Below, one piece after another: positions 5,115 through 58,552 of a stretch of DNA of 64,000 nt. Within the stretch, counting starts at the first letter, position 1; each line of letters starts with the position of its first letter. A program made the translations under genes and the position numbers. The stretch spans positions 307,979 to 371,978 of the forward strand of contig JBAZWG010000001.1 in the NCBI GenBank assembly GCA_041660505.1, in the 5' to 3' direction. A model generated the notes under the pieces. The model saw nothing but the letters and a program-made list of their open reading frames with translations, searched no databases and was not told the origin of the DNA. Source of the stretch: Minisyncoccota bacterium (GTDB lineage: Bacteria; Patescibacteriota; Minisyncoccia; Phycocordibacterales; JACRKE01).

Positions 5115-5150
5115 AAGGTTCAACCTTGGGCATTCAAAAGGTTGAACCTT
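5115..5150. repeat. Paired palindromic element AAGGTTCAACCTT-N-AAGGTTGAACCTT (family 1)
   Basis: aaggttcaaccttgggcattcaaaaggttgaacctt lies between paralog 2 and paralog 3. It is the same unit found at nine other sites in the window. Confidence 0.8.
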
Positions 5151-5160
5151 AAGACAGACC

Positions 5161-6900
5161 ATGAACCCAGAAACTAAAAGTTGCCAAAACTGCCAAAACC
5201 CGTTCGTCATCGAGCCGGAGGATTTCGGGTTTTACCAAAAGATAAAAGTTCCCCCGCCGACTTGGTGTCCGGAGTGTCGAAATGTACGACGAATGGCGTG
5301 GAGGGAGTATATGACCCTGTATCGCGGCGTTTGTGCGATGTGCCAGAAACAAATCGTAACCATTCATGCCCCGGGCGGGCCATTCACCATCTATTGCCGA
5401 GAATGCTTCAGATCAGACAAATGGAGCCCTCTTGACTATGGTAGAGATTACGACTTCGACTCTCCGTTTTTTACACAATATCGTCGCTTGATGGAAGCAG
5501 TCCCCCGACCGGCGTTAACCGGCTCGAATCTTGTGAACAGCGATTACACTCACGCCTGCGAGAGCATTAAAAACTGCTACTACACTTTCTTTAGTTTCCA
5601 AACCCAAGATTCGGAAAATTGCTATGCGCTATTTCTGTCTCAAAATTGCTTCGACTGCTATGTGACTGACAATTCTAACCAGGCTTATGAATCATTGCAT
5701 TCAAACAGATTGTACAGAGTGAGTTTCGGCTACTTCGCTGATGAATGCCTAGAATCGTCTTTCTTGTATGACTGTGTCGGCTGTTCAGACTGCTTCGGTT
5801 GTATAAATTTGAGGAAACAAAAATACTGCATTTTTAACGAGCAATTTTCCAAGGAAGATTACAAAGAAAGGATAAAATATTGGGATATCGGCAGTTATGC
5901 CAAACTCAAAGAAGCAAAGAAAAAATTCAGGGAACTCTATCTTTCTACGCCCCACCGTTATGCCAACATCCATCATAGCCAAGATGTTACCGGCGATATC
6001 ATTCGAGACGCTAAAAACTGCCACGCGTGTTTTTCTGCACTTGATGGTGTGGAAAATTGCAAATACCTGTATTTGGGCGGCTTAAACTTGAAAGACAGCA
6101 TGGATGTGAGCGGTGTTGGGTTGTCATCTGCGCTCCTATATGAAGTTTTTGGGATTACCGGAAATGCGTTTCGATGCTTTTTTTCTGTAGGCGGCGGTAA
6201 TTCCCAGAATACCTGGTATAGCGATTGGGCTAATAATTCATCGGACATCTTCGGCTGTATCTCTGTTAAGAATGTTAAAAATTGTATTTTAAATAAAAAG
6301 TATTCAAAAGATGAGTATGAGGCAATGATCACGAAGATCAAGAAACAAATGGACGAAGTCCCGTATGTCGACAAAAAGGGCAGAATATATAAGTTCGGCG
6401 AGTTCTTTCCGACTGAACTATCCGCTTATGCGTACAATGAATGTTTCGGGTTCCCGTTCTATCCGAAGACAAAAGAAGCGGTATTGGCCGAAAACTGGCG
6501 ATGGCAAGAATCAGCTGTCAGATCATATAATATCACCAAGGAGCCGCTAGATTTACCGGACAATATTCGAGATACTCCAGATTCTATTTGCAATGAAATT
6601 GTCGGCTGTATCGATTCCGATTGTGGCCATCAGTGCACCACAGCCTTCAGGATAAGCAAAAATGAACTCAATTTTTACAGGAGCATGAATGTCGCCTTGC
6701 CGAGGAAATGCCCGACATGCCGCACAGATGAACGCTTCGCTTGGCGGAACCGATATACTCTCTGGGAAAGACAATGTATGTGCGCGGTTGAGAGTCATGG
6801 TCATGGCAAACAATGCATAAACCGCTTCGAAACTACCTTCTCACCTGAGAAACCGGAGATTATTTACTGCGATCAATGTTATAAAGCAGAATTTATCTAA
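5161..6900 (+). CDS. Cysteine-rich protein, paralog 3 of the tandem triplet
   Basis: 579 aa. It starts MNPETKSCQNCQNPFVIEPEDFGFYQKIKVPPPTWCPECRNVRRMAWRE, carries a second CxxC...CxxC ribbon (CAMCQK...YCRECF), and ends INRFETTFSPEKPEIIYCDQCYKAEFI. Confidence 0.75.
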   Translation: MNPETKSCQNCQNPFVIEPEDFGFYQKIKVPPPTWCPECRNVRRMAWREYMTLYRGVCAMCQKQIVTIHAPGGPFTIYCRECFRSDKWSPLDYGRDYDFDSPFFTQYRRLMEAVPRPALTGSNLVNSDYTHACESIKNCYYTFFSFQTQDSENCYALFLSQNCFDCYVTDNSNQAYESLHSNRLYRVSFGYFADECLESSFLYDCVGCSDCFGCINLRKQKYCIFNEQFSKEDYKERIKYWDIGSYAKLKEAKKKFRELYLSTPHRYANIHHSQDVTGDIIRDAKNCHACFSALDGVENCKYLYLGGLNLKDSMDVSGVGLSSALLYEVFGITGNAFRCFFSVGGGNSQNTWYSDWANNSSDIFGCISVKNVKNCILNKKYSKDEYEAMITKIKKQMDEVPYVDKKGRIYKFGEFFPTELSAYAYNECFGFPFYPKTKEAVLAENWRWQESAVRSYNITKEPLDLPDNIRDTPDSICNEIVGCIDSDCGHQCTTAFRISKNELNFYRSMNVALPRKCPTCRTDERFAWRNRYTLWERQCMCAVESHGHGKQCINRFETTFSPEKPEIIYCDQCYKAEFI

Positions 6901-7024
6901 TATGTTTTGGAAGTTGAAGAAATATCGTTACTTGTTTAACATACTATGGCAATCTATTGTATTTAAGATTAAGATATTTTGGTATAACTTGCTAAAATAA
7001 GATTAAAAGCTAATTATAAATCAT

Positions 7025-7591
7025 ATGGAGACACATCGTTCGAAGGTGCTTAAGTGGATTCTGACTATCGCCATTGTTATCGTGCTTAACCTGTTCTTCA
7101 CCTTCGCCATACGTCTCGGATATAAGGAGCCTTTGCGCGAAGCATTCTGCCCTGTCAACCAGGTCAACGAGCAGATTACTAGTAAAGACAAGTGCGTCAG
7201 TGCCGGCGGACAGTGGAACGAGTACGGTACGATGGTATCTCCGGACGGCTACAGCCAACCGGTTAAGGTGGCGCCGGCCGGGACGGTCGTGCTCACGGGC
7301 TCATGCTGGTTGGAGTACACTTGCCTTAAGAACTTCGATGCAGTGCTATCGGTTTATAACCGCAACGTGTTCGTGATACTTATAATCTTGGGAGTAATCT
7401 CGCTCGGCGTGGGCTATGCAGTCGGCGCGAGCTCGGCCGTATCACTCGGACTTTCGCTCGGCGGCATCTTGGCTCTTATCATCGCCTCGATGCGCTATTG
7501 GTCTGACATGGACGACATCGTGCGAGTCATCGTCCTCGCCATCGCTCTCGTCGCCCTCCTCTGGTTCGGGATTAAGAAATTCAAGGACTAA
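7025..7591 (+). CDS. Hypothetical integral membrane protein
   Basis: 188 aa. It has an N-terminal TM helix (ILTIAIVIVLNLFFTFAI) and C-terminal TM helices. The upstream region is AT-rich and promoter-like. Confidence 0.5.
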   Translation: METHRSKVLKWILTIAIVIVLNLFFTFAIRLGYKEPLREAFCPVNQVNEQITSKDKCVSAGGQWNEYGTMVSPDGYSQPVKVAPAGTVVLTGSCWLEYTCLKNFDAVLSVYNRNVFVILIILGVISLGVGYAVGASSAVSLGLSLGGILALIIASMRYWSDMDDIVRVIVLAIALVALLWFGIKKFKD

Positions 7592-7600
7592 ACGAACGAA

Positions 7601-7636
7601 AAGGTTCAACCTTTTGCTTGCTTAAGGTTGAACCTT
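7601..7636. repeat. Family-1 paired palindrome
   Basis: aaggttcaaccttttgcttgcttaaggttgaacctt sits in the convergent gap before rplE. A degenerate agaaggtttaaccttct follows at 7656-7672. Confidence 0.75.
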
Positions 7637-7669
7637 CCTGTGCTTTATTTTTTTAGAAGGTTTAACCTT

Positions 7670-8203
7670 CTATTTCTTGAACGGGACGCCGATGGCTCTT
7701 AAGAGCGCTTCGGTCTGCTTCTTGTCTTTGCTTGTAGTCGTGAAGGTGACGGCCATACCGAAGGCGTCTTTGATGTCTTCATCGGCTGACTCGGGGAAGA
7801 TGGTGTGTTCTTTAATACCCAGGGTATAGTTGCCCATCGCGTCGATACCTGTAACAGGATAGCCACGGAAGTCGCGGATACGAGGCAATGTGATGTTCAA
7901 AAGTTTATCGAGGAAGCCGTACATGCGGGCACCGCGGAGGGTCACCTTCATACCGACGATATCGCCCTGGCGAGATTTGAATGACGCGATAGCAATCTTG
8001 GCCGGGCGCGGAGACGGCTTCTGGCCGGTAATCTTAGCCAAGCGTTCCGAGACGAGCTCAAGGCGCTTCTTGTCGTGGTTCTTGCCGGTACCAACAGAGA
8101 CCACTACTTTCGTCAGTTTAGGCACAGCCATCACGTTCGTCAGCTTGAACTGCTCCTTGAGCTTGGGGGCTTCTGCTTTGTATTTTTCTTGTACGGATGC
8201 CAT
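7670..8203 (-). CDS. rplE: 50S ribosomal protein L5
   Basis: 177 aa. MASVQEKYKAEAPKLKEQFKLTNVMAVPKLTKVVVSVGTG... is a canonical L5 sequence. Confidence 0.95.
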   Translation of the reverse strand: MASVQEKYKAEAPKLKEQFKLTNVMAVPKLTKVVVSVGTGKNHDKKRLELVSERLAKITGQKPSPRPAKIAIASFKSRQGDIVGMKVTLRGARMYGFLDKLLNITLPRIRDFRGYPVTGIDAMGNYTLGIKEHTIFPESADEDIKDAFGMAVTFTTTSKDKKQTEALLRAIGVPFKK

Positions 8204-8217
8204 ATTTTTTGTCTATC

Positions 8218-8255
8218 TTAAGGTTCAACCTTTTGGATGCCTAAGGTTGAACCTT
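8218..8255. repeat. Family-1 paired palindrome
   Basis: ttaaggttcaaccttttggatgcctaaggttgaacctt lies between rplX and rplE. Confidence 0.8.
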
Positions 8256-8263
8256 GCTAGTCA

Positions 8264-8572
8264 TTATTCAAGTTCTGCTCCAGACTTCTTTGTTACGCGA
8301 GTCTTCTTCTCGCCAATCATCTTCACGCCCGTGCGGGTCGGCTTGTCGCTCTTCGGGTCTACGATCATCACGTTCGAGACGTGCATTGGCGCGGCTTGTT
8401 CCACAATCTGACCTTTCTGCCCTTGCTTGCGTGGCTTCTGGTGAGACTTCTTGATATTGACGCCCTCAACAAGCACCTTGTTGTCGGCAGGAAAGGCACG
8501 GAGTACTTTGGCCACTTTGCCACGATCCTTACCTTTTACCACCATTACTTTGTCGCCTTTTTTGATTTTCAT
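8264..8572 (-). CDS. rplX: 50S ribosomal protein L24
   Basis: MKIKKGDKVMVVKGKDRGKVAKVL... matches the KOW-domain L24 protein. Confidence 0.93.
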   Translation of the reverse strand: MKIKKGDKVMVVKGKDRGKVAKVLRAFPADNKVLVEGVNIKKSHQKPRKQGQKGQIVEQAAPMHVSNVMIVDPKSDKPTRTGVKMIGEKKTRVTKKSGAELE

Positions 8573-8645
8573 GATTTTGTTTTTGACTTTCTCCTCAACA
8601 CTCGGTGTTTAGTGCTCCCAACACCGAGTGTTTTCCCGAAAGTCT

Positions 8646-9026
8646 TTATACCACCTCTGGTGCGAGAGAAATAATCTTCTGATAACCGACCTCACCGAGC
8701 TCGCGCGGGATAGGACCGAATACGCGGCCGCCGATTGGCTCTTTCTTCTTCTTCGTATCTTTGTCGATAATAACCACCGCATTCTCGTCGAAGCGCAGGT
8801 AGGTACCGTCCTTGCGGCGGAAGGCCTTCTTCTGGCGCACCACAATAGCCTTTAAGACATCCTTCTTCTTGATCTGGCGGCGCGGTTCGGCAACCTGGAC
8901 GGACAGGATAACCATCTCGCCAATCTCGGCGTAGTGCTTCTTGGAACCGCCAAGCACCTTGAAGATGCGTCCGATACGGGCTCCGGTGTTGTCTGCGATC
9001 TTTACAATTGAGCGTGGTTGAATCAT
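8646..9026 (-). CDS. rplN: 50S ribosomal protein L14
   Basis: MIQPRSIVKIADNTGARIGRIFKVLGGS... matches L14. Confidence 0.95.
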   Translation of the reverse strand: MIQPRSIVKIADNTGARIGRIFKVLGGSKKHYAEIGEMVILSVQVAEPRRQIKKKDVLKAIVVRQKKAFRRKDGTYLRFDENAVVIIDKDTKKKKEPIGGRVFGPIPRELGEVGYQKIISLAPEVV

Positions 9027-9035
9027 GGTAGTTTT

Positions 9036-9098
9036 TGTACTTGGACGCTTGGCTTCTGGGAACAGGGCACGGAAGCCGAGCGTCCAAGTTCCTTATCT
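9036..9098. repeat. Family-2 hairpin element (TTGGACGCTYGGCTTC ... GAAGCCGAGCGTCCAA)
   Basis: 16-bp perfect inverted arms at 9041-9056 and 9072-9087, with loop tgggaacagggcacg. It lies between the rpsQ stop and the rplN start. Confidence 0.8.
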
Positions 9099-9359
9099 TA
9101 TCTTTTCGACAATAGTGAAGCGCTTCTCCTTTGACATCGGACGGCATGGCATCATGCGGACGACATCCCCTGCGGCGTACTCATTCTTCTCGTCATGTGC
9201 CTTAAACTTCTTATCGTGCACGATAAACTTGCCGTACTTCGGGTGTTTCTTATAGGTTGAGACGAGCACGACCGCAGTCTTGTCCATTTTGTGCGACAAG
9301 ATTTTACCTTGTAAGCCCTTGCCTATTTTCTGACCTGTTTTTTGTGTTTTTGTTTCCAT
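9093..9359 (-). CDS. rpsQ: 30S ribosomal protein S17
   Basis: METKTQKTGQKIGKGLQGKILSHKMDKTAVVLVSTYKKHPKYGKFIV... matches S17. The track ORF extends to 9386 through the family-1 repeat (MNLKEDKII prefix). The start is placed at the ATG at 9357-9359. Confidence 0.9.
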   Translation of the reverse strand: METKTQKTGQKIGKGLQGKILSHKMDKTAVVLVSTYKKHPKYGKFIVHDKKFKAHDEKNEYAAGDVVRMMPCRPMSKEKRFTIVEKIR

Positions 9360-9377
9360 AATAATTTTGTCTTCTTT

Positions 9378-9412
9378 AAGGTTCAACCTTTTGGATGCCT
9401 AGGGTTGAACCT
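9378..9412. repeat. Family-1 paired palindrome
   Basis: aaggttcaaccttttggatgcctagggttgaacctt lies between rpmC and rpsQ. Confidence 0.8.
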
Positions 9413-9422
9413 TTTCCAGTCT

Positions 9423-9629
9423 TTACTTTTTCTCGTTCAATTTAGTCAGAATTCGGGCGATATCGCGCTTCATAACACTTGATGCCTTCACGTTCTTCAC
9501 TCGCGCGCCGGAGACACCGAAGCGGAAGTTCTTTAACGCCTCGCGTTTCTCGCCGAGCATTTTCTTCAAGGCATCGGTGCCTGAGTCTTGAACTTCTTTG
9601 CGATGAGTTGTAGTGTGTTTCGTTGCCAT
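9423..9629 (-). CDS. rpmC: 50S ribosomal protein L29
   Basis: MATKHTTTHRKEVQDSGTDALKKMLGEKREALKNFRFGVSGARVKN... matches L29. The track ORF extends N-terminally through the family-2 hairpin. The start is placed at the ATG at 9627-9629. Confidence 0.85.
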   Translation of the reverse strand: MATKHTTTHRKEVQDSGTDALKKMLGEKREALKNFRFGVSGARVKNVKASSVMKRDIARILTKLNEKK

Positions 9630-9643
9630 ATTTTTTGTATTTT

Positions 9644-9702
9644 GTACTTGGACGCTCGGCTTCTGGGAACAGGGCACGGAAGCCGAGCGTCCAAGTTCCT
9701 TA
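9644..9702. repeat. Family-2 hairpin element
   Basis: Arms at 9648-9663 and 9679-9694 carry the same loop as the 9036 copy. It lies between the rplP stop and the rpmC start. Confidence 0.8.
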
Positions 9703-10116
9703 TCTTGCTATAATCCTTGTCTTAACGCCGAGCTTCGTGCCTGCTTTGCGGAGCGCCTCGCGCGCCGTTGCCTCATCGGTACCGTCGATCTCAAAGAGAA
9801 TACGACCCGGGTCCACCTGGACGCAGTAGCCTTGCGGATCGCCCTTGCCCTTACCCATCTTCACTTCTGCCGGCTTGGCGGTGAATGGTCGGTCGGGGAA
9901 GACGCGAATCCAGAGCTTACCCGTCTTCTTCAAGCATCGCATGATTGCTTTGCGGGATGCTTCAATCTCGTTCGAGCGGATGCGGTCGTGACCCTCGGTC
10001 TTGAGTCCGAATGAACCGAAGGCGAGCGTGGTACCGCGCGTCTCCATGCGCACTTTGCCTGTGTTTTTGCGGCCGGTCTGCCACTTTCTGAATTTTACTT
10101 TTTTCGGGAGTAACAT
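9700..10116 (-). CDS. rplP: 50S ribosomal protein L16
   Basis: [40 protein letters not shown]... matches L16. The track ORF start at 10143 lies in the family-1 repeat; the ATG at 10114-10116 is preferred. Confidence 0.92.
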
Positions 10117-10134
10117 AAATTTTTTGTCTTCTTT

Positions 10135-10170
10135 AAGGTTCAACCTTTTGGATGCCTAAGGTTGAACCTT
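10135..10170. repeat. Family-1 paired palindrome
   Basis: aaggttcaaccttttggatgcctaaggttgaacctt lies between rpsC and rplP. Confidence 0.8.
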
Positions 10171-10179
10171 TTCCAGTCT

Positions 10180-10872: not shown

Positions 10873-10874
10873 AA

Positions 10875-11270
10875 TTATTTTTGAACTTGGACGCTTGGCT
10901 TCCGGGCCTTGTTTTGAGAAGCCGAGCGTCCAAGTTCCTTACCTTCATCGAGCGTAAGCGAGATGTGGCTGGTGCGCTTGTGGATCGGGTAGGCTCGGCC
11001 GAAGGCGCGGGGCATTGAGCGCTTCATTGTGACACCGGCGTTAACCGTTACATTCTTCACCATCAAGCTGTCTTTGTTCAATTTAAAATTATTCTCTGCG
11101 TTGGCAACAGCGGACATAAGCAATTTCTTCATTGGAGCCGCACCGCGCTTAACCATAAGGTCGAGCTGGGCCAAAGCGTCACTCACCTGCCTGCCGCGAA
11201 TAGCGTCGGCAATGAGACGGACTTTGCGGGGTGATTGTCTATAAGATTGTAATGATGCTTTGACTTCCAT
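10875..11270 (-). CDS. rplV: 50S ribosomal protein L22, with a repeat-encoded C-terminal extension
   Basis: MEVKASLQSYRQSPRKVRLIADAIRGRQVSDALAQLDLM... matches L22. The last ~19 aa (LGRSASQNKARKPSVQVQK) are encoded by the family-2 hairpin. The stop abuts the rpsC ATG. Confidence 0.9.
   Translation of the reverse strand: MEVKASLQSYRQSPRKVRLIADAIRGRQVSDALAQLDLMVKRGAAPMKKLLMSAVANAENNFKLNKDSLMVKNVTVNAGVTMKRSMPRAFGRAYPIHKRTSHISLTLDEGKELGRSASQNKARKPSVQVQK
10882..10942. repeat. Family-2 hairpin element, translated as the C-terminal tail of rplV
   Basis: Arms at 10887-10902 and 10919-10934 carry a different loop (cgggccttgttttgaga). No stop codon separates the conserved L22 body from the element. 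Confidence 0.75.
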
Positions 11271-11301
11271 ATTCTTAAATTCTCAAATTCTCTAATTCTG
11301 T

Positions 11302-11655: not shown

Positions 11656-11731
11656 TGTTTTGAAAATAATGTCCCCAAAGGGACAATGCGCTATACTACC
11701 AGAAAACAGCCCCCTCTGTCAACGAAAATAT

Positions 11732-11762
11732 CCCATGTCCGAGGTCTCGCCTCGGACATGGG
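11732..11762. repeat. REP-like hairpin (family 3) immediately after the transposase stop
   Basis: cccatgtccgaggtctcgcctcggacatggg has a 13-bp stem and a 5-nt loop. Confidence 0.85.
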
Positions 11763-11763
11763 A

Positions 11764-12564
11764 TTATTCCTTAAATCCGAGCTCGGCTATGGCTGGGTCC
11801 TCCCCCTCAACCAGTTCTTCAGCATCTTCGAACAAGAAGTCTCGGTGCTCTTTTTTATCTTCGAAGATCTCCCAAAATAACTCGGGCGTAAGTAGTGAAG
11901 GAAAGTTTTTCGCTCCCAAATAGTCAGCACAGCTCGACCAGCGATAATTCTTCAAAAAAGCCTCTATTCTTCTATTGTCCGAGGCGAGACCTCGGACATC
12001 GTGTATTGGCATGAGATCGACGGGATTAAGGTGTATATATCGCGCCAATACCGGAAGATACTGCTCATTGGTCACTTCCTTGCTCTTGAATAGTCCTTGG
12101 TAAAGTGCGCCTGTGCGCTTGTGCTTTTTATTAAAAAACATCGTATGCCCTGTCAGAACTTTTTGCATGAACTTACTCAATCCCGTATCGGTCTTCGGCG
12201 AAAGTAGGAGGTGGATATGGTTCGGCATCAGCGCATAGGCCACAATGTCTACGAGCTTCTCCCGTTTATCGGGCTTTTCTGTCTTGTCCGAGGTCTCGCC
12301 TCGGACATTAGAATTTGAGGGGGTTTTACCTGCGTCGCCCTTCAGTTTACCTTCGTTGCGGATCTTTTCTATCGGTGCGGTGTCGTTACAGACATACAAA
12401 TAATGAATAAACCGCCTGTAGTCGCGATTGTCCAGAAAAATATCGCGCTTCTCCGTCCCCCGATTATAGATATGATAATAAGCTCCCGCCTCAAATGGTA
12501 TTCGTTCCATATAGCCTAGTATACCACGGATAATGGCGGAGGTTGAACCTCCGCCATATAACAA
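11764..12564 (-). mobile_element. tnpA: IS200/IS605-type HuH tyrosine transposase (REP-associated RAYT-like), inserted between rpsS and rplB
   Basis: It contains an HuH motif (ALMPNHIHLLL) and a downstream tyrosine region (ARYIHLNP). The likely real start is MERIPFEAGAYYHIYNRG at 12510. Two copies of the GTCCGAGG-N5-CCTCGGAC hairpin lie in-frame inside it, at 11976-11999 and 12285-12307, encoding VRGLASD and VRGETSD. A ggcggaggttgaacctccgcc hairpin at 12533-12553 sits just upstream. Confidence 0.75.
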
Positions 12565-12611
12565 AAAACACCATTCTTATTGAATAGTGTTTTTTAGTTT
12601 TGATTTTCTTT

Positions 12612-13451
12612 TTATCGAGCTTTGCGGCCGGGGCGTCTACTGACGACGAAGACGTTTGAATACTTCTTGGGTGTGCGGGTTTTGTGGCCTCCGGTGACCT
12701 TTCCAGTGCGGGTCTTTGGGCGCTTGGTGCCACGGCCTTGGCGGCCTTCTCCACCACCATATGGATGATCTACCGGGTTCATGGCCGTACCACGGACCTT
12801 CGGACGTCTACCGAGCCAGCGTGATTTGCCTGCCTTGCCTAATTGAACGAGTTGGTTCTCATCATTCGATACTGCGCCAATCGTGGCGTAACTGTTCTCG
12901 TTGACTTTGCGGACTTCGCCGGATGGGAGTTTGATACTCGTAAATCCTGCGTCGGATGCAAGCACTTCACAAAAATTACCGGCCGAGCGGGCGATCTTGG
13001 CGCCGCCACGGGGGTGAATTTCGATATTATAGACAAATGTTCCGGCCATCAGTTTCTTGAGCGGCAGTCTGTTGCCGGTTGCGACCGGTGCATTCTCGGA
13101 CACAATAAAGCTGTCGCCTACTTTCATGTTCTTCGGTGCCAAAATATAGCGACGTTCACCATCTTTATAGAGTACGAGCGCAATGAAGCCTGTGCGGTTC
13201 GGGTCATATTCAACAGACTCGACAGTCGCCGGAATATCAAATTTGTTGTACATGAAATCCACAAGGCGATACATGCGCTTGTGTCCGCCACCTTTGTGGA
13301 ACGAAGTAACACGACCCTTATTATTACGGCCAACATCGCGCTTACCACCCAAGGTAAGAGCCTTATGTGGTTCATTACGCGTAATAAACTCCCGGTAATT
13401 GATGCCGGTCATATTGCGTCTGGATTTGGATGTGGGAGAGTAGTGTTTCAT
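12612..13451 (-). CDS. rplB: 50S ribosomal protein L2
   Basis: 279 aa. It carries the ...GGGHKRMYR... and ...HPYGGGEGR... motifs of L2. Confidence 0.96.
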   Translation of the reverse strand: MKHYSPTSKSRRNMTGINYREFITRNEPHKALTLGGKRDVGRNNKGRVTSFHKGGGHKRMYRLVDFMYNKFDIPATVESVEYDPNRTGFIALVLYKDGERRYILAPKNMKVGDSFIVSENAPVATGNRLPLKKLMAGTFVYNIEIHPRGGAKIARSAGNFCEVLASDAGFTSIKLPSGEVRKVNENSYATIGAVSNDENQLVQLGKAGKSRWLGRRPKVRGTAMNPVDHPYGGGEGRQGRGTKRPKTRTGKVTGGHKTRTPKKYSNVFVVSRRPGRKAR

Positions 13452-13460: not shown

Positions 13461-13499
13461 CCGAGGCGAGACCTCCGCCTTTGCCGGAGGTCTCGCCTC
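13461..13499. repeat. GC-rich hairpin related to family 3 (GAGGCGAGACCTCCG / CGGAGGTCTCGCCTC)
   Basis: 15-bp perfect inverted arms around loop cctttgc, between rplW and rplB. Confidence 0.8.
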
Positions 13500-15481: not shown

Positions 15482-15487
15482 AGTGTA

Positions 15488-15527
15488 ATCGGAGGTCCGA
15501 CCTCCCTCTGGAGGTCGGACCTCCGAT
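15488..15527. repeat. GC-rich double palindrome (CGGAGGTCCGACCTCC arms)
   Basis: atcggaggtccgacctcc-ctct-ggaggtcggacctccgat lies between tuf and rpsJ. It is related to the CGGAGGTC family. Confidence 0.8.
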
Positions 15528-15531
15528 TTCT

Positions 15532-29724: not shown

Positions 29725-29760
29725 AAGGTTCGACCTTTTACTTGCTTAAGGTCGAACCTT
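29725..29760. repeat. Family-1 paired palindrome (tcgacc variant)
   Basis: aaggttcgaccttttacttgcttaaggtcgaacctt. Confidence 0.7.
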
Positions 29761-30273: not shown

Positions 30274-30309
30274 AAGGTTCAACCTTTTGGATGCCTAAGG
30301 TTGAACCTT
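30274..30309. repeat. Family-1 paired palindrome
   Basis: aaggttcaaccttttggatgcctaaggttgaacctt lies between rpsL and rpsG. Confidence 0.8.
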
Positions 30310-52160: not shown

Positions 52161-53972
52161 TTACTCATTCGCTACACGCAAGACTTCCTCTATGCTCGTT
52201 ACGCCTTGTGCGGCTTTAAATATGCCATCTTCGAACATCGTAAGCATGCCGGCCGCACGGGCAGTGCGCTCCAAGTCGGCATCGCTCGCGTTCTTGATGA
52301 TTAATTCTTTAATCGCCGGTGTCATCTTCATAATCTCGTGAATACCGACACGACTCTTATAGCCATCCGGGCAGTCTGGCGATGGCTTGGGGCGACAGAA
52401 TTGGATTTTTGAAAAGTCATCGGTCGGGCCGACTATTTTCTCTTCTCGTAATTTTTGCAGTACGACATCGAGATTAATATGCTTCTTTAGTGACTCTATC
52501 TCGCCCGCCGTCAGCGTGTATTTCTCGTTGACGTGGTGCAAACGCCGCACCAAGCGCTGAGCGATGACCACGTTAAGGGTTGAGACGAGCAAGAACGGCT
52601 CCACCCCCATATCAATAAGCCTCGGCACCGCACCGGCAGCCGAGTTGGTGTGCAAAGTAGAAAGCACAAGATGGCCGGTCAACGCCGCATTGATGGCAAG
52701 AGATGCTGTCTCTTTGTCGCGAATCTCCCCCACCATTATAATATTCGGATCTTGGCGCATCAGGGCACGCAAACCGGCACCGAAGGTCAGGCCGATGTCG
52801 GGCTTAACCTGCGTCTGATTAACACGACCCATCTGATATTCGATCGGATCCTCTATTGTAGAAATATTTACGTCCGGTGTATTTAGCGTGTCTATCATCG
52901 TATAGAGCGTCGTCGTCTTGCCCGAGCCGGTCGGGCCGGTGGCCAGGATTATCCCCGTCGTTTGTCTCATTGCGTCGTGAATAGCTTCGAGCCCGGCGCC
53001 ATGGAAGCCGAGCACCTCGAGAGTGAATCCCTTTGCTGTATCGGGAAGCAAGCGCATCACCACCTTCTCGCCGAAGTATGTCGGCAAGAGCGAAACGCGG
53101 AATGACACCTTCTGCCCAGTCTCGGCATTGTCGATTTTAAATCGTCCGTCTTGAGGCAAGCGCTTTTCATCTAGGCGCAGGTGCGAAAGCACTTTGATGC
53201 GCGCCACGATGCCGGAAGCGGCGGCGATTGGCAATATCATTGCGTCATGCAAGATACCGTCGATGCGATAGCGGATTACGAGCTGGCCCTCGAAAGGTTC
53301 GATATGAATATCCGACGCCTGCTGGAGAATGGCGTGCTCGAGCAAAGCGTCCACAATGCGCACCACCGGCACATCTTCTGCCAGCTTAGCCAGATCAGGA
53401 TCAACTTCAGGGCCAGAGGTGAGTCCTCTGACATTTTCAGCGGCCGAGGTGAGTCCTCCGGTTTCAGCGGAGGTCTCTCCTCGGCCACCTATCTTCCTCG
53501 CCTCTGAACTTATAATACTGCCAAACTCGTCGCGCAAGCTTTTCTGATATTGGATAAGACCTCCTTTTATAGATTCTGTGTCTGTGAGCCGCGGTAAAAT
53601 GCGCACACCCGTGCGCTTGGCGATGAACTCGATAGCCTCCACGTCTTGCGGATCAAGCATCGCTACCTCGATATTGTTGTCTTTATCTCTCGCGTAAGCG
53701 AGCACATTGTGTTTGCGCGCAATCGGTTCCGGGATTATTGCAAGCAGTTTCGGGTCTATCTTCTGACCCTTTAAAGATATGAATGGAATGCCGAAGAGGT
53801 ACGCCTGCACACGGCGGAATTCGTCTTCGGTAATCTTACCTTCAGAAACTAAAACGTCGCCGACCGTTCTATCCTTCTCCTTTGCAAGTTTATCTGCCGC
53901 GTCGAAGTCGGCACCAGAGATCAAGCCGGCATCGAGCACGAATTGCTTGAGCTGTTTGGTGTCGAGTTGCAT
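52161..53972 (-). CDS. pilB: Type IV pilus assembly ATPase PilB (GspE family), with an in-frame repeat-derived insertion in the linker
   Basis: It has an N-terminal GSPII_E_N domain and Walker A GPTGSGKTTTL. The start is placed at MQLDTKQL (53972), because the track start 53993 lies in a family-1 repeat. Nucleotides 53413-53486 encode RGETSAETGGLTSAAENVRGLTSG. Confidence 0.85.
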   Translation of the reverse strand: MQLDTKQLKQFVLDAGLISGADFDAADKLAKEKDRTVGDVLVSEGKITEDEFRRVQAYLFGIPFISLKGQKIDPKLLAIIPEPIARKHNVLAYARDKDNNIEVAMLDPQDVEAIEFIAKRTGVRILPRLTDTESIKGGLIQYQKSLRDEFGSIISSEARKIGGRGETSAETGGLTSAAENVRGLTSGPEVDPDLAKLAEDVPVVRIVDALLEHAILQQASDIHIEPFEGQLVIRYRIDGILHDAMILPIAAASGIVARIKVLSHLRLDEKRLPQDGRFKIDNAETGQKVSFRVSLLPTYFGEKVVMRLLPDTAKGFTLEVLGFHGAGLEAIHDAMRQTTGIILATGPTGSGKTTTLYTMIDTLNTPDVNISTIEDPIEYQMGRVNQTQVKPDIGLTFGAGLRALMRQDPNIIMVGEIRDKETASLAINAALTGHLVLSTLHTNSAAGAVPRLIDMGVEPFLLVSTLNVVIAQRLVRRLHHVNEKYTLTAGEIESLKKHINLDVVLQKLREEKIVGPTDDFSKIQFCRPKPSPDCPDGYKSRVGIHEIMKMTPAIKELIIKNASDADLERTARAAGMLTMFEDGIFKAAQGVTSIEEVLRVANE

Positions 53973-53983
53973 GAGATCGACAC

Positions 53984-54024
53984 CGAGGTTCAACCTTTTT
54001 GATGCCTAAGGTTGAACCTCGGTG
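53984..54024. repeat. Family-1 paired palindrome, extended variant (ccgaggttcaacc...ggttgaacctcgg)
   Basis: accgaggttcaacctttttgatgcctaaggttgaacctcggtgg. Confidence 0.8.
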
Positions 54025-54027
54025 GCA

Positions 54028-54504
54028 TTATTTGATAAGTACGATACGTTTCGCGCTAAATGAAGTGCTCGTGATATCCGCTCCGGCCTCCGCCGACACA
54101 TTCATCCCCGCCTTCAAGTCAGCCAGTTTGATATTCTTCTCTAGAAACGGATTGAACTGCTCCCCCGCCTTCGGCACCGCTTGCAGATTTAGCTCTCTGC
54201 TTATCAGAACAGTTGCGCCGGAGACCTCAACTGTATAGGCCGTCGAAGCTACCTTCCCCGCCGTCGGGTCATAAGGAGGCTGTACGTCGAGCGTTAGTGA
54301 GTTGCCGGAAACCGCTATTATTTTACCCGAGACACTGGTAATACGAGTCGGTGCTGGCGGGATGACCCCAGATTGCTGTAAGTTCGCGCGCACCTCTTGC
54401 CGGGCATTGCCAGCCCCGTTTTCGTAGCCCATGGTATATCCCGCGACTCCGCCGAGTATCAACCCGACAATAACTCCTATTATTATTTCTTTTGTTGTAT
54501 TCAT
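54028..54504 (-). CDS. Hypothetical membrane-anchored protein
   Basis: 158 aa. It has the N-terminal TM helix IIIGVIVGLILGGVAGY. It lies between the second fibre gene and pilB. Confidence 0.5.
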   Translation of the reverse strand: MNTTKEIIIGVIVGLILGGVAGYTMGYENGAGNARQEVRANLQQSGVIPPAPTRITSVSGKIIAVSGNSLTLDVQPPYDPTAGKVASTAYTVEVSGATVLISRELNLQAVPKAGEQFNPFLEKNIKLADLKAGMNVSAEAGADITSTSFSAKRIVLIK

Positions 54505-54513
54505 GATTATTAT

Positions 54514-57500
54514 TTATCGCTTGATGCAAGAAAATGCATAAGTTCTGGCCTCGTTGGCAAGCTGGGCATTATCTTTAATATTAAAGCTGATGGCTCCGGT
54601 AGTAACAATCTTCCAACCTGCTTCACACCCCTTCCCCGACATCGGTGCGATAAACGATGTCATGAAATCCCCGCTCGCAACCTTGGCCGCAATAACTGAA
54701 TCAGGAATTTCACATGAAGTGGGTGTGCAGTATGTCTGCGGTTGTATAAATGCTGAAACCCCATACCCTGCAATCGAACCGGCAGGAAGTGAGTTGTAGT
54801 TAGCTATTGTTGCACCGGTGCCTGCAGGACCTTGCGGTCCGGCAGGACCAGCCGGGCCCATTGGCCCAACTGTACCGCCAGTTCCTCCTCCAGTGATCCC
54901 TAAATCGGTTAGCGACTTCCAGCTCGCCGTACCATCACCAAATGAAGCAAGGATTTTTGATGTTTGTCCGGTACTCAAACCTTCCGTACCATCAGCAATA
55001 CGCACCTTGCCGCCGACTTCGAGCATGAGTTGAGGGGCGGTTTGCGCTTGTGCGGTTCCGATAAGAGAACTTACGGAAGCTGTTTGTTTTTGTGATTGCT
55101 GTTCATCTCCTCCAAATAGCGACGAGAACCATGAGCCGACCGAAGCCAACAATCCCTTCTTCTCGACATTGGCAATTGTTTTGCTTGCCGAAGCATTGAT
55201 TGAGAATATATTACTCTCGCTAGCCGGAACAAGAGGATAACACACCCCCTTATACAGAAGGGTATCTAGACTGGTAGACACTCCCGGCACAAAACTAAAG
55301 ATTGTGCCTGCGTCCAGTTGACCGCGACCCAATCCCATTGACCCCGGATTGTTGGTATATCCGGCAAAACATTTTGCATGGAGACCTGCAACCGCCGCAT
55401 ACCCATAGACTGAAGTGTTTGGCGCGACGACAGCGGGACCTTCTTGTGTAACAGGCGTATTGGTGTATGAGTGAACCGATGTGTACCAATCTTCAAACTT
55501 AGTATCATTTGGGGCGTGACAAATAGCGAGGGCTTTATGAGGTATTAAATCCCCGCCCGTATCTCGCATTTGGTCGAGAGTGGTCCAACCGGATGGACAC
55601 GTTGCCCGCTCTTCTTGAACTCCACTGGCCCCTTTAACAACAACCATGCCCACGCCTCCGGGGACGTCCGCCCAAGTTGTAAGTCGGTGATTATTCGGTT
55701 CACAAATAGCATGCAGGTTACTGATATGCGCAGTGAAACTATCGAGTTTAGTCATTCCGGATGGGCACGCACTGGTAGAACTCATAAAGCCGAGGCCGGA
55801 TGGAAGTGTCATCGTCTTTGGAGTCGGTGGTGCGTCAGTTGCCGTCATAGGTGGTAACACTGCCGGCGGGACCCCAGCCACTCCTGGCGACTTGCCGGTG
55901 GCAGATATAAGAACCTTGGCCCTAGCAATCACAGCCGTTCCATCTTTATCGCTTGCGGAGAAGTCTCCCCCGACACCACCAGGGCCACCACCTCTTCCAA
56001 CGACACCAGCACCGCCAAGATTGTTATAACCCATGACACCGTAAGTATTGCCATGTCCCACTATGCCATAGTTTCCAGTACTTTCACCGCGTATAGCAGC
56101 GCCCTTATCCGCAGACACCTCCAAGCGTGCGTCCTTCGGCTTTCTGACACCAACACCGATCCTTCCGTCTACATAGAGGTTGGCTGGGTCGGTCGGCGCG
56201 TCTGCCACTTCCGCTCCATAAGCGCCATGGGCTTTCCTTACGGCTTCGGCTTTTGTTATGCCGATACTTATATAGACACACATGGCATAATCGTCTTGCG
56301 TTATGCGATTGTCACCGTCTACATCAAGCTCTGCGAATTCCACAGTAGTTGGAGTATACGTGCCAAGCAGGTAGTTAGTTACTTTTTGCTGACTTGTCGC
56401 CGCTCCTCCTCTGCAATTCCCCCCACCGCCACCTCCTCCGCCAAGTTCACTTAAGCTCTTCCAACTAGCATTCCCCGTCGCGTCAGATGCGAGTACTTTT
56501 TTATCGCCTTCGTTAATACCTGTAAATTTGAGCGGACCGCTTGTTACAAGAGCCATGGAACCGGGATATCCAGTGAAAGAACCAGCGGTTGAACCATTCC
56601 CACTGCTTACGCCTGAAATTGCGATGGAACCCTGTCCTGTTACCGTCGCATCAACGCCTCTGGCGTCCACACCGTTCGTTTCTGTAATAATTCCGGTAGC
56701 ACTGCGAACATTACCGGTGTGTCTGATAGAAATACCAAGCGGTGATTTTACTCTGACTGAAGTGCCGATTTCTATCGCCCCCGGGTTTCCGGGAAAACTG
56801 TCGTATTGTCTCACCATCGAATCTCCAAGGACGCTACCGCCAACCCACTTAGGAAGATACCCTGGTGTACCACCGCCCGTAACGCCTGGTGGTGGCGGGG
56901 GGCAGTTGGTGCCTACACACTGTATTTTCGGTACGCAGATAGGCCTCCTTGTCGTCTGGTCGAAACCTTGAATCACTTTATCGACACCGCAATCGCCTAT
57001 CGCAGTTAAGATGGTCGGTGTGTCCGCACTGATAGTGCCACTTGTTGTAATTTTGTTAGGATCGGCGCCGTTGCCAGTGAAGACGATACCGTTGCCTTTA
57101 TTAAGTTCGCTGATGCCCGTATCGATAAAATCTCGCGTAACAAGATCAGACCATTTATTGATACAGTGCTGGTCGTCCGGCAAGCAGAGGCCAAGTGTCT
57201 TTATATTGCCTGCGACGTTGAAGAGCTGGGTGAAGAAGTTATTGTTATTATTGCCGACACCAGGATGGACAACTCCGTTATTGTCAGTAAATTCATAAAA
57301 TAACGAATCACCGAGGTTTGTAGCACCGAACCATCTGGCAAGCCTGCCTGGTGTGCCTTGGCCGGTTAGGCCACTACCCCCTGGCGTAATGATAATACAG
57401 TCAGCTGTCTGACCTGTTGCGATTTGCTCGGGGGTACAGATATTGGTGTTCGTAATATGATTGCTAATCTGCGTCCAGTCATATTGAGTAAAGCTATTCG

Positions 57501-57822
57501 TGATGTTAGTTCCACCGCCACCGCCAGAAGGCCAATTGGGACCCGTAACACAATTTCCGATATGGTCCGCTCTGGTAACATCAAAAAAACAAAATTGACC
57601 ACCAACCACTTTACTTGGCGTCAAAACACCGAATGGGTCGGTATTCATGTTCCCCACAATAACTCGCCCTTGTTTAACTTGTCCGGCAGGGCTAACATTA
57701 AGGGGTGCATCACAGCCCGAGTCGCCAGAAAGACAGCCCGGTGGCGTACGTAGTGGGCCAGTCCATGCCAAGACGACAATTGGGGCGACTAGTAGTATAA
57801 ATAGAGCGAAAGTTTTTTTCAT
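54514..57822 (-). CDS. Giant secreted fibre-like protein, paralog of the 48362 gene, with collagen-like repeats
   Basis: 1102 aa. Its N-terminus MKKTFALFILLVAPIVVLA-WTGPLRTPPG matches the other fibre protein. It has the collagen-like tract GPMGPAGPAGPQGPAGTG and a Cys-containing C-terminal domain. Confidence 0.75.
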   Translation of the reverse strand: MKKTFALFILLVAPIVVLAWTGPLRTPPGCLSGDSGCDAPLNVSPAGQVKQGRVIVGNMNTDPFGVLTPSKVVGGQFCFFDVTRADHIGNCVTGPNWPSGGGGGTNITNSFTQYDWTQISNHITNTNICTPEQIATGQTADCIIITPGGSGLTGQGTPGRLARWFGATNLGDSLFYEFTDNNGVVHPGVGNNNNNFFTQLFNVAGNIKTLGLCLPDDQHCINKWSDLVTRDFIDTGISELNKGNGIVFTGNGADPNKITTSGTISADTPTILTAIGDCGVDKVIQGFDQTTRRPICVPKIQCVGTNCPPPPPGVTGGGTPGYLPKWVGGSVLGDSMVRQYDSFPGNPGAIEIGTSVRVKSPLGISIRHTGNVRSATGIITETNGVDARGVDATVTGQGSIAISGVSSGNGSTAGSFTGYPGSMALVTSGPLKFTGINEGDKKVLASDATGNASWKSLSELGGGGGGGGNCRGGAATSQQKVTNYLLGTYTPTTVEFAELDVDGDNRITQDDYAMCVYISIGITKAEAVRKAHGAYGAEVADAPTDPANLYVDGRIGVGVRKPKDARLEVSADKGAAIRGESTGNYGIVGHGNTYGVMGYNNLGGAGVVGRGGGPGGVGGDFSASDKDGTAVIARAKVLISATGKSPGVAGVPPAVLPPMTATDAPPTPKTMTLPSGLGFMSSTSACPSGMTKLDSFTAHISNLHAICEPNNHRLTTWADVPGGVGMVVVKGASGVQEERATCPSGWTTLDQMRDTGGDLIPHKALAICHAPNDTKFEDWYTSVHSYTNTPVTQEGPAVVAPNTSVYGYAAVAGLHAKCFAGYTNNPGSMGLGRGQLDAGTIFSFVPGVSTSLDTLLYKGVCYPLVPASESNIFSINASASKTIANVEKKGLLASVGSWFSSLFGGDEQQSQKQTASVSSLIGTAQAQTAPQLMLEVGGKVRIADGTEGLSTGQTSKILASFGDGTASWKSLTDLGITGGGTGGTVGPMGPAGPAGPQGPAGTGATIANYNSLPAGSIAGYGVSAFIQPQTYCTPTSCEIPDSVIAAKVASGDFMTSFIAPMSGKGCEAGWKIVTTGAISFNIKDNAQLANEARTYAFSCIKR

Positions 57823-57829
57823 AAAAAAA

Positions 57830-58144
57830 TTATTTATTATTTTTTAAAAGATTTTGTACTTGTTTAAGACTTAGGACGGGGTGGCTACTGGTATCGATAT
57901 TAGAAGTTAATAGTTTTTTGCTCTCGGTTTCGCTTAAAATCGGCCCTTGTGTTTTGTTTTTAATATTGGTTCCTGCTTCCGGTGCGAAAGTAAGCTCATT
58001 ATCTACCGCTTTTGGCGGGTTAAGGTATACATAAAGCCCGGTACTGCCGAGAAGCAGTAAGACGGTGATGCTTAATGCGACAAGCGGCCATCTTTTGTGA
58101 GTTGGCACCGACGGTTCATAAAGTTGTTCGAGTTCTTGACGCAT
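57830..58144 (-). CDS. Hypothetical small membrane-anchored protein
   Basis: The start is placed at MRQELEQLYEP..., which has a TM helix (LVALSITVLLLLGSTGLYVYL). The track ORF is 57830..58213. Confidence 0.4.
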   Translation of the reverse strand: MRQELEQLYEPSVPTHKRWPLVALSITVLLLLGSTGLYVYLNPPKAVDNELTFAPEAGTNIKNKTQGPILSETESKKLLTSNIDTSSHPVLSLKQVQNLLKNNK

Positions 58145-58145
58145 T

Positions 58146-58394
58146 TTATTTACGATTTCGAGAATTAAACATCGCATCCATATTGTTGCGATATTTGGCG
58201 ATAGTCTGCTCAAGCTGGGCCGCAGAGGCAGGGCTCCCCGGCTGATATGTCATCGTATTAGACGCGGGCACAGTATTCGCAGGCGCCGATTGTTTTAAAA
58301 GAACCATGGCGAAGATGCCAATTGTGCCAAGCACAAGTAAAACCAACGCACACACGATAAAAATAATTTTCGCTCGCGTACTCACGCTATTCAT
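58146..58394 (-). CDS. Hypothetical small membrane-anchored protein
   Basis: 82 aa. It has the TM helix IIFIVCALVLLVLGTIGIFAMVLL. Confidence 0.4.
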   Translation of the reverse strand: MNSVSTRAKIIFIVCALVLLVLGTIGIFAMVLLKQSAPANTVPASNTMTYQPGSPASAAQLEQTIAKYRNNMDAMFNSRNRK

Positions 58395-58510
58395 TATACT
58401 AGAGGTGCGCTGTTTAAAACAGGTATTTGACTGTTGATAACTTTGTATGGTAGTATATTATGTCTGTCCGTCGGTATCCGAACGGACATTTCTTTTATAA
58501 AATAATGAAT

Positions 58511-58552
58511 ACCGAGGTTCAACCTTGAGCATCTTAAAGGTTGAACCTCGGT
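58511..58552. repeat. Family-1 paired palindrome, extended variant
   Basis: accgaggttcaaccttgagcatcttaaaggttgaacctcggt lies directly upstream of nusA. Confidence 0.8.

Follow-up and report, generated by a model that had tools for sequence, protein, structure and literature searches.

The 64,000-nucleotide stretch of contig JBAZWG010000001.1 analysed here (the window; positions 307,979 to 371,978, from a Minisyncoccota bacterium) carries a short paired palindrome, family 1, mostly between ribosomal-protein genes. We classify family 1 as palindromic repeats of the REP/REPIN type (repetitive extragenic palindromes and their hairpin-forming doublets) tied to a family of HUH/Y1 transposases that resemble REP-associated tyrosine transposases (RAYTs), and we put the probability of this classification at about three in four. 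By analogy with the known systems, a RAYT-like transposase would catalyse the movement of the family-1 hairpins. The class is defined by RAYT genes with abundant REPINs on their flanks (PMC3116915, PMC5581495). Family 1 is a stem-loop palindrome that in the window is over-represented and extragenic, it occurs as an inverted doublet, it flanks RAYT-like genes elsewhere and it is absent at the orthologous site of a relative. A sequence-only reading of the window had listed a miniature mobile element among several possibilities and had suspected a link to a transposase or RAYT and to a REP-like hairpin family (family 3); both suggestions are supported by the palindromes that flank Y1 homologues in other genomes, by the spacer of the relative that lacks family 1 and by a predicted fold closest to TnpA-REP.

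The family-1 repeat and its hairpin

Searching the window for the unit AAGGTTSAACCTT with at most one mismatch, with 100 shuffles as the null, gave 19 units where 0.10 were expected; none of the 100 shuffles reached that number. The copies comprise nine doublets, AAGGTTCAACCTT-N10-AAGGTTGAACCTT (13 + 10 + 13 nt = 36), and three single palindromes with the family-1 core (12533-12557, the 'hybrid', 7654-7672 and 2055-2073). The paired palindrome that had been noticed at many sites is thus real, and the coordinates first given for it were correct to within 1-3 nt. Its anatomy had been described as inverted palindromic units around a C or G, which holds, but the spacer quoted, ttttggatgcct, takes in two unit bases; the true spacer is 10 nt long and reads TTGGATGCCT on the + strand in four doublets.

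Each unit is a perfect 6-N-6 palindrome and the unit centres are 23 bp apart. In all nine doublets the centre of unit 1 is C and the centre of unit 2 is G, which makes the pair an inverted repeat; in eight of the nine, variants included, the sequence of unit 2 equals the reverse complement of unit 1 exactly. The variants at 29725, 53985 and 58514 keep the pairing between units through changes on both arms: at 29725 (AAGGTTCGACCTT and AAGGTCGAACCTT) the palindrome within the unit is broken while the pairing between units is kept, and at 53985 and 58514 both outer ends are altered (GAGG..CCTC), with the stem lengthened to 17 bp. Since the variants preserve inter-unit pairing, the relevant structure is one long hairpin. 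The long RNA hairpin proposed from the letters is supported by predicted folds of -19 to -30 kcal/mol for the window copies (z-scores of -3.7 to -8.4) and by covariation of the flanks, described below. Six of the nine copies share the sense loop RGGCATYMAA and the other three are closer to it in sense than in antisense; from this resemblance, read in the sense of the flanking genes, all nine doublets are probably co-oriented with transcription. Five copies are near-identical over about 55-60 nt, in the order TAA-W-GAC-TGG-MM, the 36-mer, AA(A)GA-N-AGAC, an A-rich leader and ATG, the TAA being the stop codon of the upstream gene.

Several other identities were considered for the element and rejected. 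The loop is too short for a tRNA-like T-arm. Anti-Shine-Dalgarno mimicry would rest on AAGGTT, which matches 4 nt only, and the genes here lack Shine-Dalgarno (SD) motifs. GTTCAAC/GTTGAAC fit the RYYYAAC/GTTRRRY of integron attC sites by eye, but, as judged by position and without a search for an integrase or extrahelical bases, the copies lie between conserved ribosomal-protein genes and form no cassette array; a solo CRISPR repeat is likewise without an array, and parS, dif, NrdR and CIRCE-like operators misfit in sequence, copy number or position. Intrinsic terminators carry a U tract behind a GC-rich hairpin, whereas on the sense strand an A-rich leader and the next ATG come after the copies here. 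Rfam covariance models at gathering scores gave no matches in the window, a tRNA/tmRNA scan of the window found none and a full-text literature search for the 13-mer returned only two unrelated matches (fungal primers).

The exact doublet, with a spacer of 8-12 nt, was then scanned for in 596 Gb of species-representative assemblies, in which we estimate that chance would give ∼0.001 doublets. It occurs 116 times in 108 blocks from 47 assemblies, of which 37 are labelled Patescibacteria or candidate phyla radiation (CPR; the labels include Moranii- and Taylor- names, Saccharibacteria and Paceibacterota), three are unlabelled and seven have other labels; a 1.3-Mb relative contains at least 14 exact doublets. 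The metagenome-assembled genomes (MAGs) with the doublet include some labelled Gammaproteobacteria, Bdellovibrionales, Micavibrio and Bacteroidetes, some of them also with the transposase (the non-CPR-labelled set includes L004, L005, L025, L029, L035, L044, L055, L057, L071, L074, L076, L081, L089, L090 and L098). We did not take these labels as a sign of spread beyond Patescibacteria. In the one label checked, 'Bdellovibrionales', the MiaB-like protein is 63% identical to its Moraniibacteriota orthologue; that label is doubtful, and at least some of the non-CPR labels are probably wrong.

Spacers and flanks vary across these genomes yet stay self-complementary (CGGCTAGCCG, TGGCTAGCCA and AGCCGCGGCT among others), and the stem extends contiguously beyond the arms by a mean of 2.27 nt outward and 2.22 nt inward, against a random expectation of 0.33. 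In the 59 copies whose spacer is 10 nt long, standard pairs of many types make up 66-92% at the six pair positions that border the arms; covariation scored 0.204, compared with 0.098 after shuffling (0 of 500 shuffles reach it) and the pairing collapses when the partners are slid. The arms themselves are invariant because the search demanded exact arms. Many copies are perfect palindromes without a loop, and the neighbouring genes are unrelated from genome to genome.

This covariation bears on whether the doublets could instead be sites for a protein on DNA, either the paired operator of a dimeric regulator of translation or pili or DNA uptake sequences for competence. Perfect 6-N-6 units at a fixed distance, near pilB and translation genes, would suit such a site, and uptake sequences in Neisseria are often inverted pairs at gene ends. 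We nevertheless find this account barely plausible. An operator would not need pairing between the units, yet such pairing is indicated by the constant order of the centres (C, then G), by the variants with compensatory changes and by the covariation of flanks and spacers; the sites are between cistrons or, elsewhere, inside open reading frames (ORFs) rather than at promoters; and their neighbours are unrelated across genomes. Nothing that we found favours the regulon operator that had been suggested, and the inter-unit and flank pairing counts against it. Patescibacteria are naturally competent (PMC10633639), which speaks for uptake sequences, but neither the lack of units in 12.9 kb of a close relative nor the low density in the 1.3-Mb relative fits a species-wide signal.

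Hairpins around and inside RAYT-like transposase genes

When all of the window proteins were compared with the 108 doublet-selected blocks, only one recurred: the ORF at 11764-12510, which matches Pfam Y1_Tnp. Homologues with 32-42% identity are present in 12-13 of the blocks, whereas ∼0.9-2.6 would be expected (P < 2e-5). At least eight blocks have the palindrome immediately ahead of the ATG, past the stop codon or at both places: L001 and L098 have doublets on both sides of the gene, L004, L083 and L088 have a doublet just before the ATG, and in L089, L042 and L076 the gene is bracketed by single extended palindromes (e.g. TTGACG-AAGGTTGAACCTT-CGTCAA). The reciprocal test used 80 metagenome loci picked by the protein alone, of which 68 were evaluable. 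In 29 of the 68, one stem occurs both at the stop codon (mostly -15 to +11) and upstream of the gene, where it starts at -120 to -18 relative to the ATG; in 25 loci the stem is also internal, at nt 159-198 or 442-465. The stem sequence varies from locus to locus while the apex is usually RAGG-N5-CCTY, and the exact family-1 13-mer is found next to transposases of at least six divergent clusters. In the window the hairpin upstream of the gene, GGCGGAGGTTCAACCTCCGCC, has the family-1 core (GGAGGTTCAACCTCC) with GAGG..CCTC ends, as at 53985 and 58514.

The members of this protein family are ∼220-250 residues long and share YHIYNRG, an invariant N-H-x-H (HUH), G.LFQG.FK, the tyrosine of YIHLNP and a C-terminal YRWSS..DY.G.KNFPS. 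Both the HUH motif and the catalytic tyrosine are present, as N97-H98-x-H100 and Y158 (YIHLNP) are invariant in 28 sequences. According to Foldseek, the AlphaFold2 (AF2) model of the window protein (predicted local distance difference test score, pLDDT, of 82) is closest to PDB entry 4ER8, E. coli TnpA-REP bound to REP, with an E value of 3.9e-6 and a template-modelling (TM) score (target) of 0.65, compared with ∼3e-4 for the TnpA proteins of IS608 and ISDra2; the predicted fold is thus nearer to TnpA-REP than to IS200/IS605 TnpA. Searching the PDB with the single transposase sequence gave nothing, and a profile search gave marginal hits in which ISDra2 TnpA and TnpA-REP were about equally weak. 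The window has one copy of the gene and no TnpB partner, and most of the homologous protein clusters were seen on one or two contigs. On its sense strand, the gene (region 11764-12612, in the S10 operon) is preceded by a terminator-like hairpin at 12563-12595 and a TATACT box.

In-frame copies of the flanking palindrome were seen at one or two fixed sites inside the transposase genes of the window, L110-L189, L051, L060 and L089. These sites are the two internal positions given above; in the model they correspond to the low-confidence loops formed by residues 56-79 and 171-176. GGPTS and GGSTS are examples of the insert as translated in homologues. To our knowledge, no RAYT gene with an internal copy of its own REP has been described. 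The internal hairpin could be an autoregulatory site of the transposase.

The conserved AAGG-TTSAA-CCTT matches the RAGG-N5-CCTY apex found beside RAYT-like transposases in Patescibacteria, of which the window encodes one member. In the mechanism that we propose, the doublet would fold on a single strand into one long hairpin, and the transposase would bind this hairpin as it is extruded from single-stranded DNA, by analogy with E. coli TnpA-REP (PMC3479197) and IS200/IS605 TnpA. The catalytic tyrosine would nick beside the hairpin, and the short element would be excised and re-inserted, or copied. Copies would survive at sites that tolerate them: directly behind stop codons, within leaders and, elsewhere, in protein surface loops. 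In this genome the sub-family with the sense loop AGGCATCCAA and the flanks TAAWGAC..AGAC has probably spread recently into the intercistronic spacers of the S10/spc and str operons.

Family 1 resembles the REP/REPIN and RAYT systems of E. coli and Pseudomonas fluorescens (PMC3116915, PMC3479197, PMC5581495) in having short hairpin palindromes as inverted doublets that are abundant outside genes, with one palindrome flanking an HUH/Y1 transposase gene whose product has its nearest fold in 4ER8. Like RAYTs, the transposase may be single-copy (one copy in the 64 kb); it is syntenic between relatives, and the hairpin sequence shifts with the transposase between lineages. The system is of a known kind, with differences. 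There is no unpaired GTAG tag and the conserved part is the hairpin apex; the transposases form a C-terminally extended clade (∼90 residues, ending in the YRWSS..DY.G.KNFPS region) that scores under the NCBIfam RAYT cut-off; their genes hold hairpin copies of their own; the host belongs to the Patescibacteria; and the self-palindromic doublet is 36 bp long, unlike the REPINs of Pseudomonas, which are roughly 70-110 bp. A literature search of incomplete coverage found no paper linking REP/RAYT to Patescibacteria, to which the relationship would here be extended.

The same features could be asked to describe the ends, or solo derivatives resembling miniature inverted-repeat or palindrome-associated transposable elements (MITE/PATE-like), of an active insertion sequence (IS) of the IS200/IS605 type, and not repeats that depend on a domesticated RAYT present in single copy. 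With IS200/IS605 elements (IS608, ISDra2) and their non-autonomous derivatives, family 1 would share HUH/Y1 chemistry and the recognition of single-stranded DNA hairpins, and like them it lacks long terminal inverted repeats. The Pfam match is to Y1_Tnp, the PDB profile does not favour TnpA-REP over ISDra2 TnpA, hairpins on both sides of the gene recall the subterminal ends of IS200/IS605, and the 13-mer beside transposases of so many divergent clusters would fit horizontal spread. GAC borders each of the five near-identical window copies at either end, which would recall the insertion of IS200/IS605 elements 3' of a short target. We consider this alternative very unlikely, as the fold match to IS200/IS605 TnpA is weaker than that to TnpA-REP and the gene stays at the same chromosomal site, diverging like its ribosomal neighbours, while most protein clusters are confined to one or two contigs. 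The upstream and downstream hairpins are identical, with the same stem on both sides in 29 of 68 loci, and are not distinct left and right ends; the window has no TnpB; and solo hairpins outnumber gene copies. The doublet also had no hits in 2.9 million viral contigs, and so there is no sign of phage carriage.

Turnover and copies inside genes

A transposase with 90% identity is encoded on contigs L190-L192 of a close relative, at the same site (rplB|Y1|rpsS) and among ribosomal proteins that are 77-96% identical to those of the window. The 12.9 kb of L190 contain no family-1 unit. Absence from close relatives had been named in advance as an observation that would refute a conserved element, and this is the observation made here. 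One orthologous family-1 site, rpsC|rplP, could be compared between the window and L190. In L190 it is occupied by ACTTGG-GAGGCTAAGCCTC-N15-GAGGCTTAGCCTC-CCAAGT, a doublet of 13-nt palindromes with a predicted folding energy of -38.9 kcal/mol, and apart from the stop codon and the terminal ACAAAAAATTT-ATG the two spacers have nothing in common. At 12353-12365 of L190 the loop of the first palindrome (GAGGC-TAA-GCCTC) is formed by TAA, the stop codon of rpsC, so that this repeat overlaps the end of the coding sequence. The rplV|rpsC spacer is 3 nt long in the relative compared with 65 nt in the window, where it holds a hairpin of another family (family 2); at rpsJ|rplC and rpsS|rplV the pattern is reversed. 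The lack of family 1 in the orthologous spacer argues against a conserved regulator and for turnover, which is as predicted for a mobile or replaceable repeat, although a hairpin of some kind is retained at rpsC|rplP. Upstream of its transposase gene, L190 also has an extra 100-residue ORF and 278 nt (9403-10000), both of which the window lacks.

In other genomes, 36 of the 116 doublets (∼31%) are more than 45 nt inside long ORFs. All 18 of the intragenic copies checked by translation are in frame, read as KVQP..RLNL, EGSTFG.PKVEPS or RFNL..KVEP, and add 12-13 residues to the host protein. The arginyl-tRNA synthetase (ArgRS) carries the insert at L011:7062 and L106:4827 (both confirmed by Pfam) and at L085:978 (near-identical flanks); the site is common to all three, although identity between the L011 and L106 proteins is just 30%. 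A MiaB-like enzyme has it at L005:4188 (Pfam), with a 63%-identical homologue at L046:1018. UvrC bears two copies in one gene and UvrA bears copies in two genomes (Pfam), these UvrA and UvrC copies being in L044 and L023. Further hosts identified by Pfam are the valyl-tRNA synthetase (ValRS), an isoleucyl-tRNA synthetase (IleRS)-like protein and, in two genomes, the β-subunit of phenylalanyl-tRNA synthetase (PheRS-beta); the copies in the Uvr proteins and in these further hosts are those at L044:2199, 2901 and 5592, L023:2964, L017:4183, L034:3585, L016:4259 and L010:4336.

REPs are described as lying between unidirectional ORFs and just downstream of coding regions, as forming head-to-head dimers and as occurring sometimes in repair genes; intragenic copies, notably in uvr genes, are described for the tagged REPs and for the palindromic elements (RPEs) of Rickettsia (PMC3733652). 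The intragenic copies of family 1 thus fit the REP class and count against a dedicated intercistronic signal. Like the GTAG and CGTC super-families of REPs and RPE-4 and RPE-6 of Rickettsia, family 1 forms head-to-head dimers that can fold into a larger hairpin, and like the tagged REPs, which are known in frame in uvrA, uvrB and uvrC (here UvrA and UvrC), it has sites just downstream of ORFs between unidirectional genes (PMC3733652). Unlike the tagged REPs, the window copies have neither tag, and the CGTC at the stem foot of the L044, L089 and L185 copies is paired. CGTC REPs were reported without a dedicated transposase (PMC3733652), whereas family 1 is found beside one.

Operon spacers, leaders and neighbouring features

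Coding sequence makes up 91% of the window, yet each of the nine doublets lies between genes (P ∼ 4e-10); six belong to ribosomal-protein operons, inside them or at their ends. The gene context first read from the letters was confirmed by Pfam or translation: the doublets are at rpsC|rplP, rpmC|rpsQ, rplX|rplE and rpsL|rpsG, after rplE, at rpsG|orf, upstream of pilB (T2SSE), upstream of nusA and between two Cys-rich paralogues. The spurious TTG-initiated extensions (MNLKEDK) noticed at the same time are real as well; TTG AAC CTT AAA GAA GAC is translated as this peptide, and the false starts originate inside unit 2. An SD-like 4-mer precedes only seven of the 56 gene starts, SD sequences being essentially absent. 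TATAAT-like boxes were seen ∼10-20 nt from the ATG in many window genes, and being so near the ATG they suggest that leaders are very short or that the mRNAs are leaderless.

Several observations weigh against a REP/RAYT classification, or limit it. The hairpins of the window transposase gene are mainly of family 3 (GTCCGAGG-N5-CCTCGGAC), once downstream and twice internally, the family-1 core being limited to the upstream one; the gene of the relative has family 3 (TGTCCGAGG-N5-CCTCGGACA) on both flanks. Because both genes are flanked mainly by family 3, the cognate enzyme of family 1 in this genome may be encoded outside the window. Families 1 and 3 both match RAGG-N5-CCTY, and either a single enzyme may act on the two families or another gene, located beyond the window, may be involved. 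The family-1 13-mer was found in only eight of the 80 loci selected by protein. On the protein side, the best NCBIfam model, REP_Tyr_transpos (NF047646), scores 48.3 bits, below its cut-off of 80, and the C-terminal extension of ∼90 residues is absent from 4ER8. The flanks of the window copies (TAAWGACTGGMM and AAAGAMAGAC) contain neither a GTAG nor a CGTC tag. Placement is a further difficulty: the doublets start 8-17 nt past a stop codon and end 8-18 nt before an ATG, and every long spacer of the S10/spc operon, in the relative too, bears a strong hairpin of some family, for which selection for a hairpin as such could be the explanation. Selfish spread alone does not explain why the copies are in sense, why they keep set distances to the neighbouring stop and start codons, or why each long spacer has a hairpin; these features could reflect selection against other placements in SD-less operons, or a real role in the mRNA.

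A primary function in RNA would make these features central. The hairpins would be selected intercistronic elements that block 3'-exonucleases or direct processing and thereby set how stable the segments of an operon are, or that keep the A-rich, SD-less leader unstructured, and the transposase link would be incidental or a source of raw material. The nine copies in sense at near-constant distances from stop and start codons, the stability of the window hairpins and the hairpin in every long S10/spc spacer, with one of another sequence at rpsC|rplP of the relative, are in its favour, as is the scarcity of SD sequences, since leaders would then rely on being unstructured; E. coli REPs, moreover, stabilize upstream mRNA (PMC3733652). 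We judge such a primary function unlikely. The sequence in the orthologous spacer is not conserved, and a comparison of close relatives shows hairpins gained or lost in several spacers. Only three of the 108 blocks elsewhere have a ribosomal context (L078, L080 and L091), which led us to reject this context as a general rule, and nearly a third of the copies are in long ORFs, in frame in all 18 checked. Sense orientation was rejected as a general rule too: copies elsewhere with the asymmetric GAATCGGGAAA-type loop are oriented 10:4 between genes and 5:5 within genes, which is not significant. The many loopless perfect palindromes, the arm mismatch at 9378, which is C-A on the sense RNA, and the lack of Rfam matches in the window do not suit an RNA function, and such a function leaves unexplained why the 13-mer flanks transposase genes. 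The conserved RNA-processing or translational signal of ribosomal operons that had been put forward from the window is, on the same counts, not supported. The hairpins may still have a secondary effect on mRNA in this genome.

A more tentative extension of the REP/RAYT classification, which we regard as doubtful though less so than a primary RNA function, is that a domesticated RAYT supplies and renews RAGG-N5-CCTY hairpins between SD-less cistrons, at stop codons and inside its own gene, where they would act as insulators or stabilizers of mRNA and in autoregulation of the transposase. Selection for a hairpin at each junction would then be signalled by families 1 and 2 alternating along the operon and by the replacement, not loss, of the hairpin in the relative. 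If hairpins do shape the expression of SD-less operons, this would bear on the balance of ribosomal-protein synthesis.

With family 1 taken as REP/REPIN-type repeats, a conspicuous repeat of a reduced genome is explained without a new regulator. There is a warning for annotation in the false TTG starts and, in other genomes, in the inserts of 12-13 residues in essential proteins. The compact rule of a RAGG-N5-CCTY apex, with hairpins ahead of the transposase gene, within it and at its stop codon, could be used to pair hairpins and transposases in thousands of MAGs, and the turnover between close relatives makes the repeats possible strain markers. The positions of the features are collected in Table 1.

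Table 1. Family-1 copies, related hairpins and the transposase gene of the window
Feature	Position	Strand	Remarks
Single palindrome GTGGAGGTTTAACCTCCAC, family-1-like core	2055..2073	.	Inside ORF 407..2209
Family-1 doublet	5115..5150	+	Between Cys-rich paralogues; 8 nt past TAA of 3352..5106, 10 nt before ATG 5161; sense loop GGGCATTCAA
Family-1 doublet	7601..7636	-	Past rplE end, between convergent genes; sense loop AAGCAAGCAA
Single palindrome TAGAAGGTTTAACCTTCTA	7654..7672	.	Overlaps rplE stop codon
Family-1 doublet	8220..8255	-	rplX|rplE spacer; 8 nt past TAA, 16 nt before ATG; sense loop AGGCATCCAA
Family-1 doublet	9378..9413	-	rpmC|rpsQ spacer; one arm mismatch, C-A in sense, U-G in antisense
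Family-1 doublet	10135..10170	-	rpsC|rplP spacer; 9 nt past TAA, 18 nt before ATG; other hairpin there in relative L190
Family-3 hairpin ATCCCATGTCCGAGG-N5-CCTCGGACATGGGAT	11730..11764	-	Abuts transposase stop codon (downstream cognate position)
RAYT-like Y1/HUH transposase gene, 248 aa	11764..12510	-	Between rplB and rpsS; motifs YHIYNRG, PNHIHLL (HUH), YIHLNP (Tyr)
Family-3 hairpin	11976..11998	-	In frame, second internal site; low-confidence loop 171-176 of model
Family-3 hairpin	12285..12307	-	In frame, first internal site; low-confidence loop 56-79 of model
Single hairpin ATGGCGGAGGTTCAACCTCCGCCAT (sense), family-1 core	12533..12557	-	Ends 22 nt before Y1 ATG; roughly the cognate upstream-hairpin position of relatives
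Family-1 variant doublet AAGGTTCGACCTT..AAGGTCGAACCTT	29725..29760	-	After rpsG (rpsG|orf); TCG/CGA variant; both-arm changes keep stem
Family-1 doublet	30274..30309	-	rpsL|rpsG spacer; 17 nt before rpsG ATG
Family-1 doublet, GAGG..CCTC ends, 17-bp stem	53981..54024 (core 53985-54020)	-	Between ORF 54028..54504 and pilB; foot 8 nt before in-frame ATG 53972
Family-1 doublet, GAGG..CCTC ends, 17-bp stem	58510..58553 (core 58514-58549)	+	10 nt before in-frame nusA ATG 58564

The window also contains other hairpins. Family 2 (ACTTGGACGCTCGGCTTC, also written ACTTGGACGCTYGGCTTC, followed by N15 and the reverse complement; stem of 18-20 bp) is found at 9039-9089, 9646-9696 and 10883-10937, where it occupies rpsQ|rplN, rplP|rpmC and rplV|rpsC and alternates with family 1 along the S10/spc operon. 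In the relative L190, family-2-like outer stems (ACTTGG..CCAAGT) enclose other inner palindromes. Other palindromes in the S10/spc spacers are at 8597, 13463 and 15487; palindromes or doublets of the GAGG-N5-CCTC or GGAGGTCSGACCTCC type are found at 15487-15528 (tuf|rpsJ) and 13463-13499 (rplW|rplB), as well as at 53416-53482 (inside or near pilB) and at 4955 (inside ORF 3352..5106), and they obey the same RAGG-N5-CCTY apex rule as family 1.

The two Cys-rich paralogues at 3352-6900 are in tandem, ∼580 residues each, 37% identical and rich in CxxC, and have no Pfam or NCBIfam match. The spc operon ends after rplE and the next gene (7025..7591, without a Pfam hit; region 7025-8203) is convergent, so that rpsN, rpsH, rplF and the genes that follow must be elsewhere.

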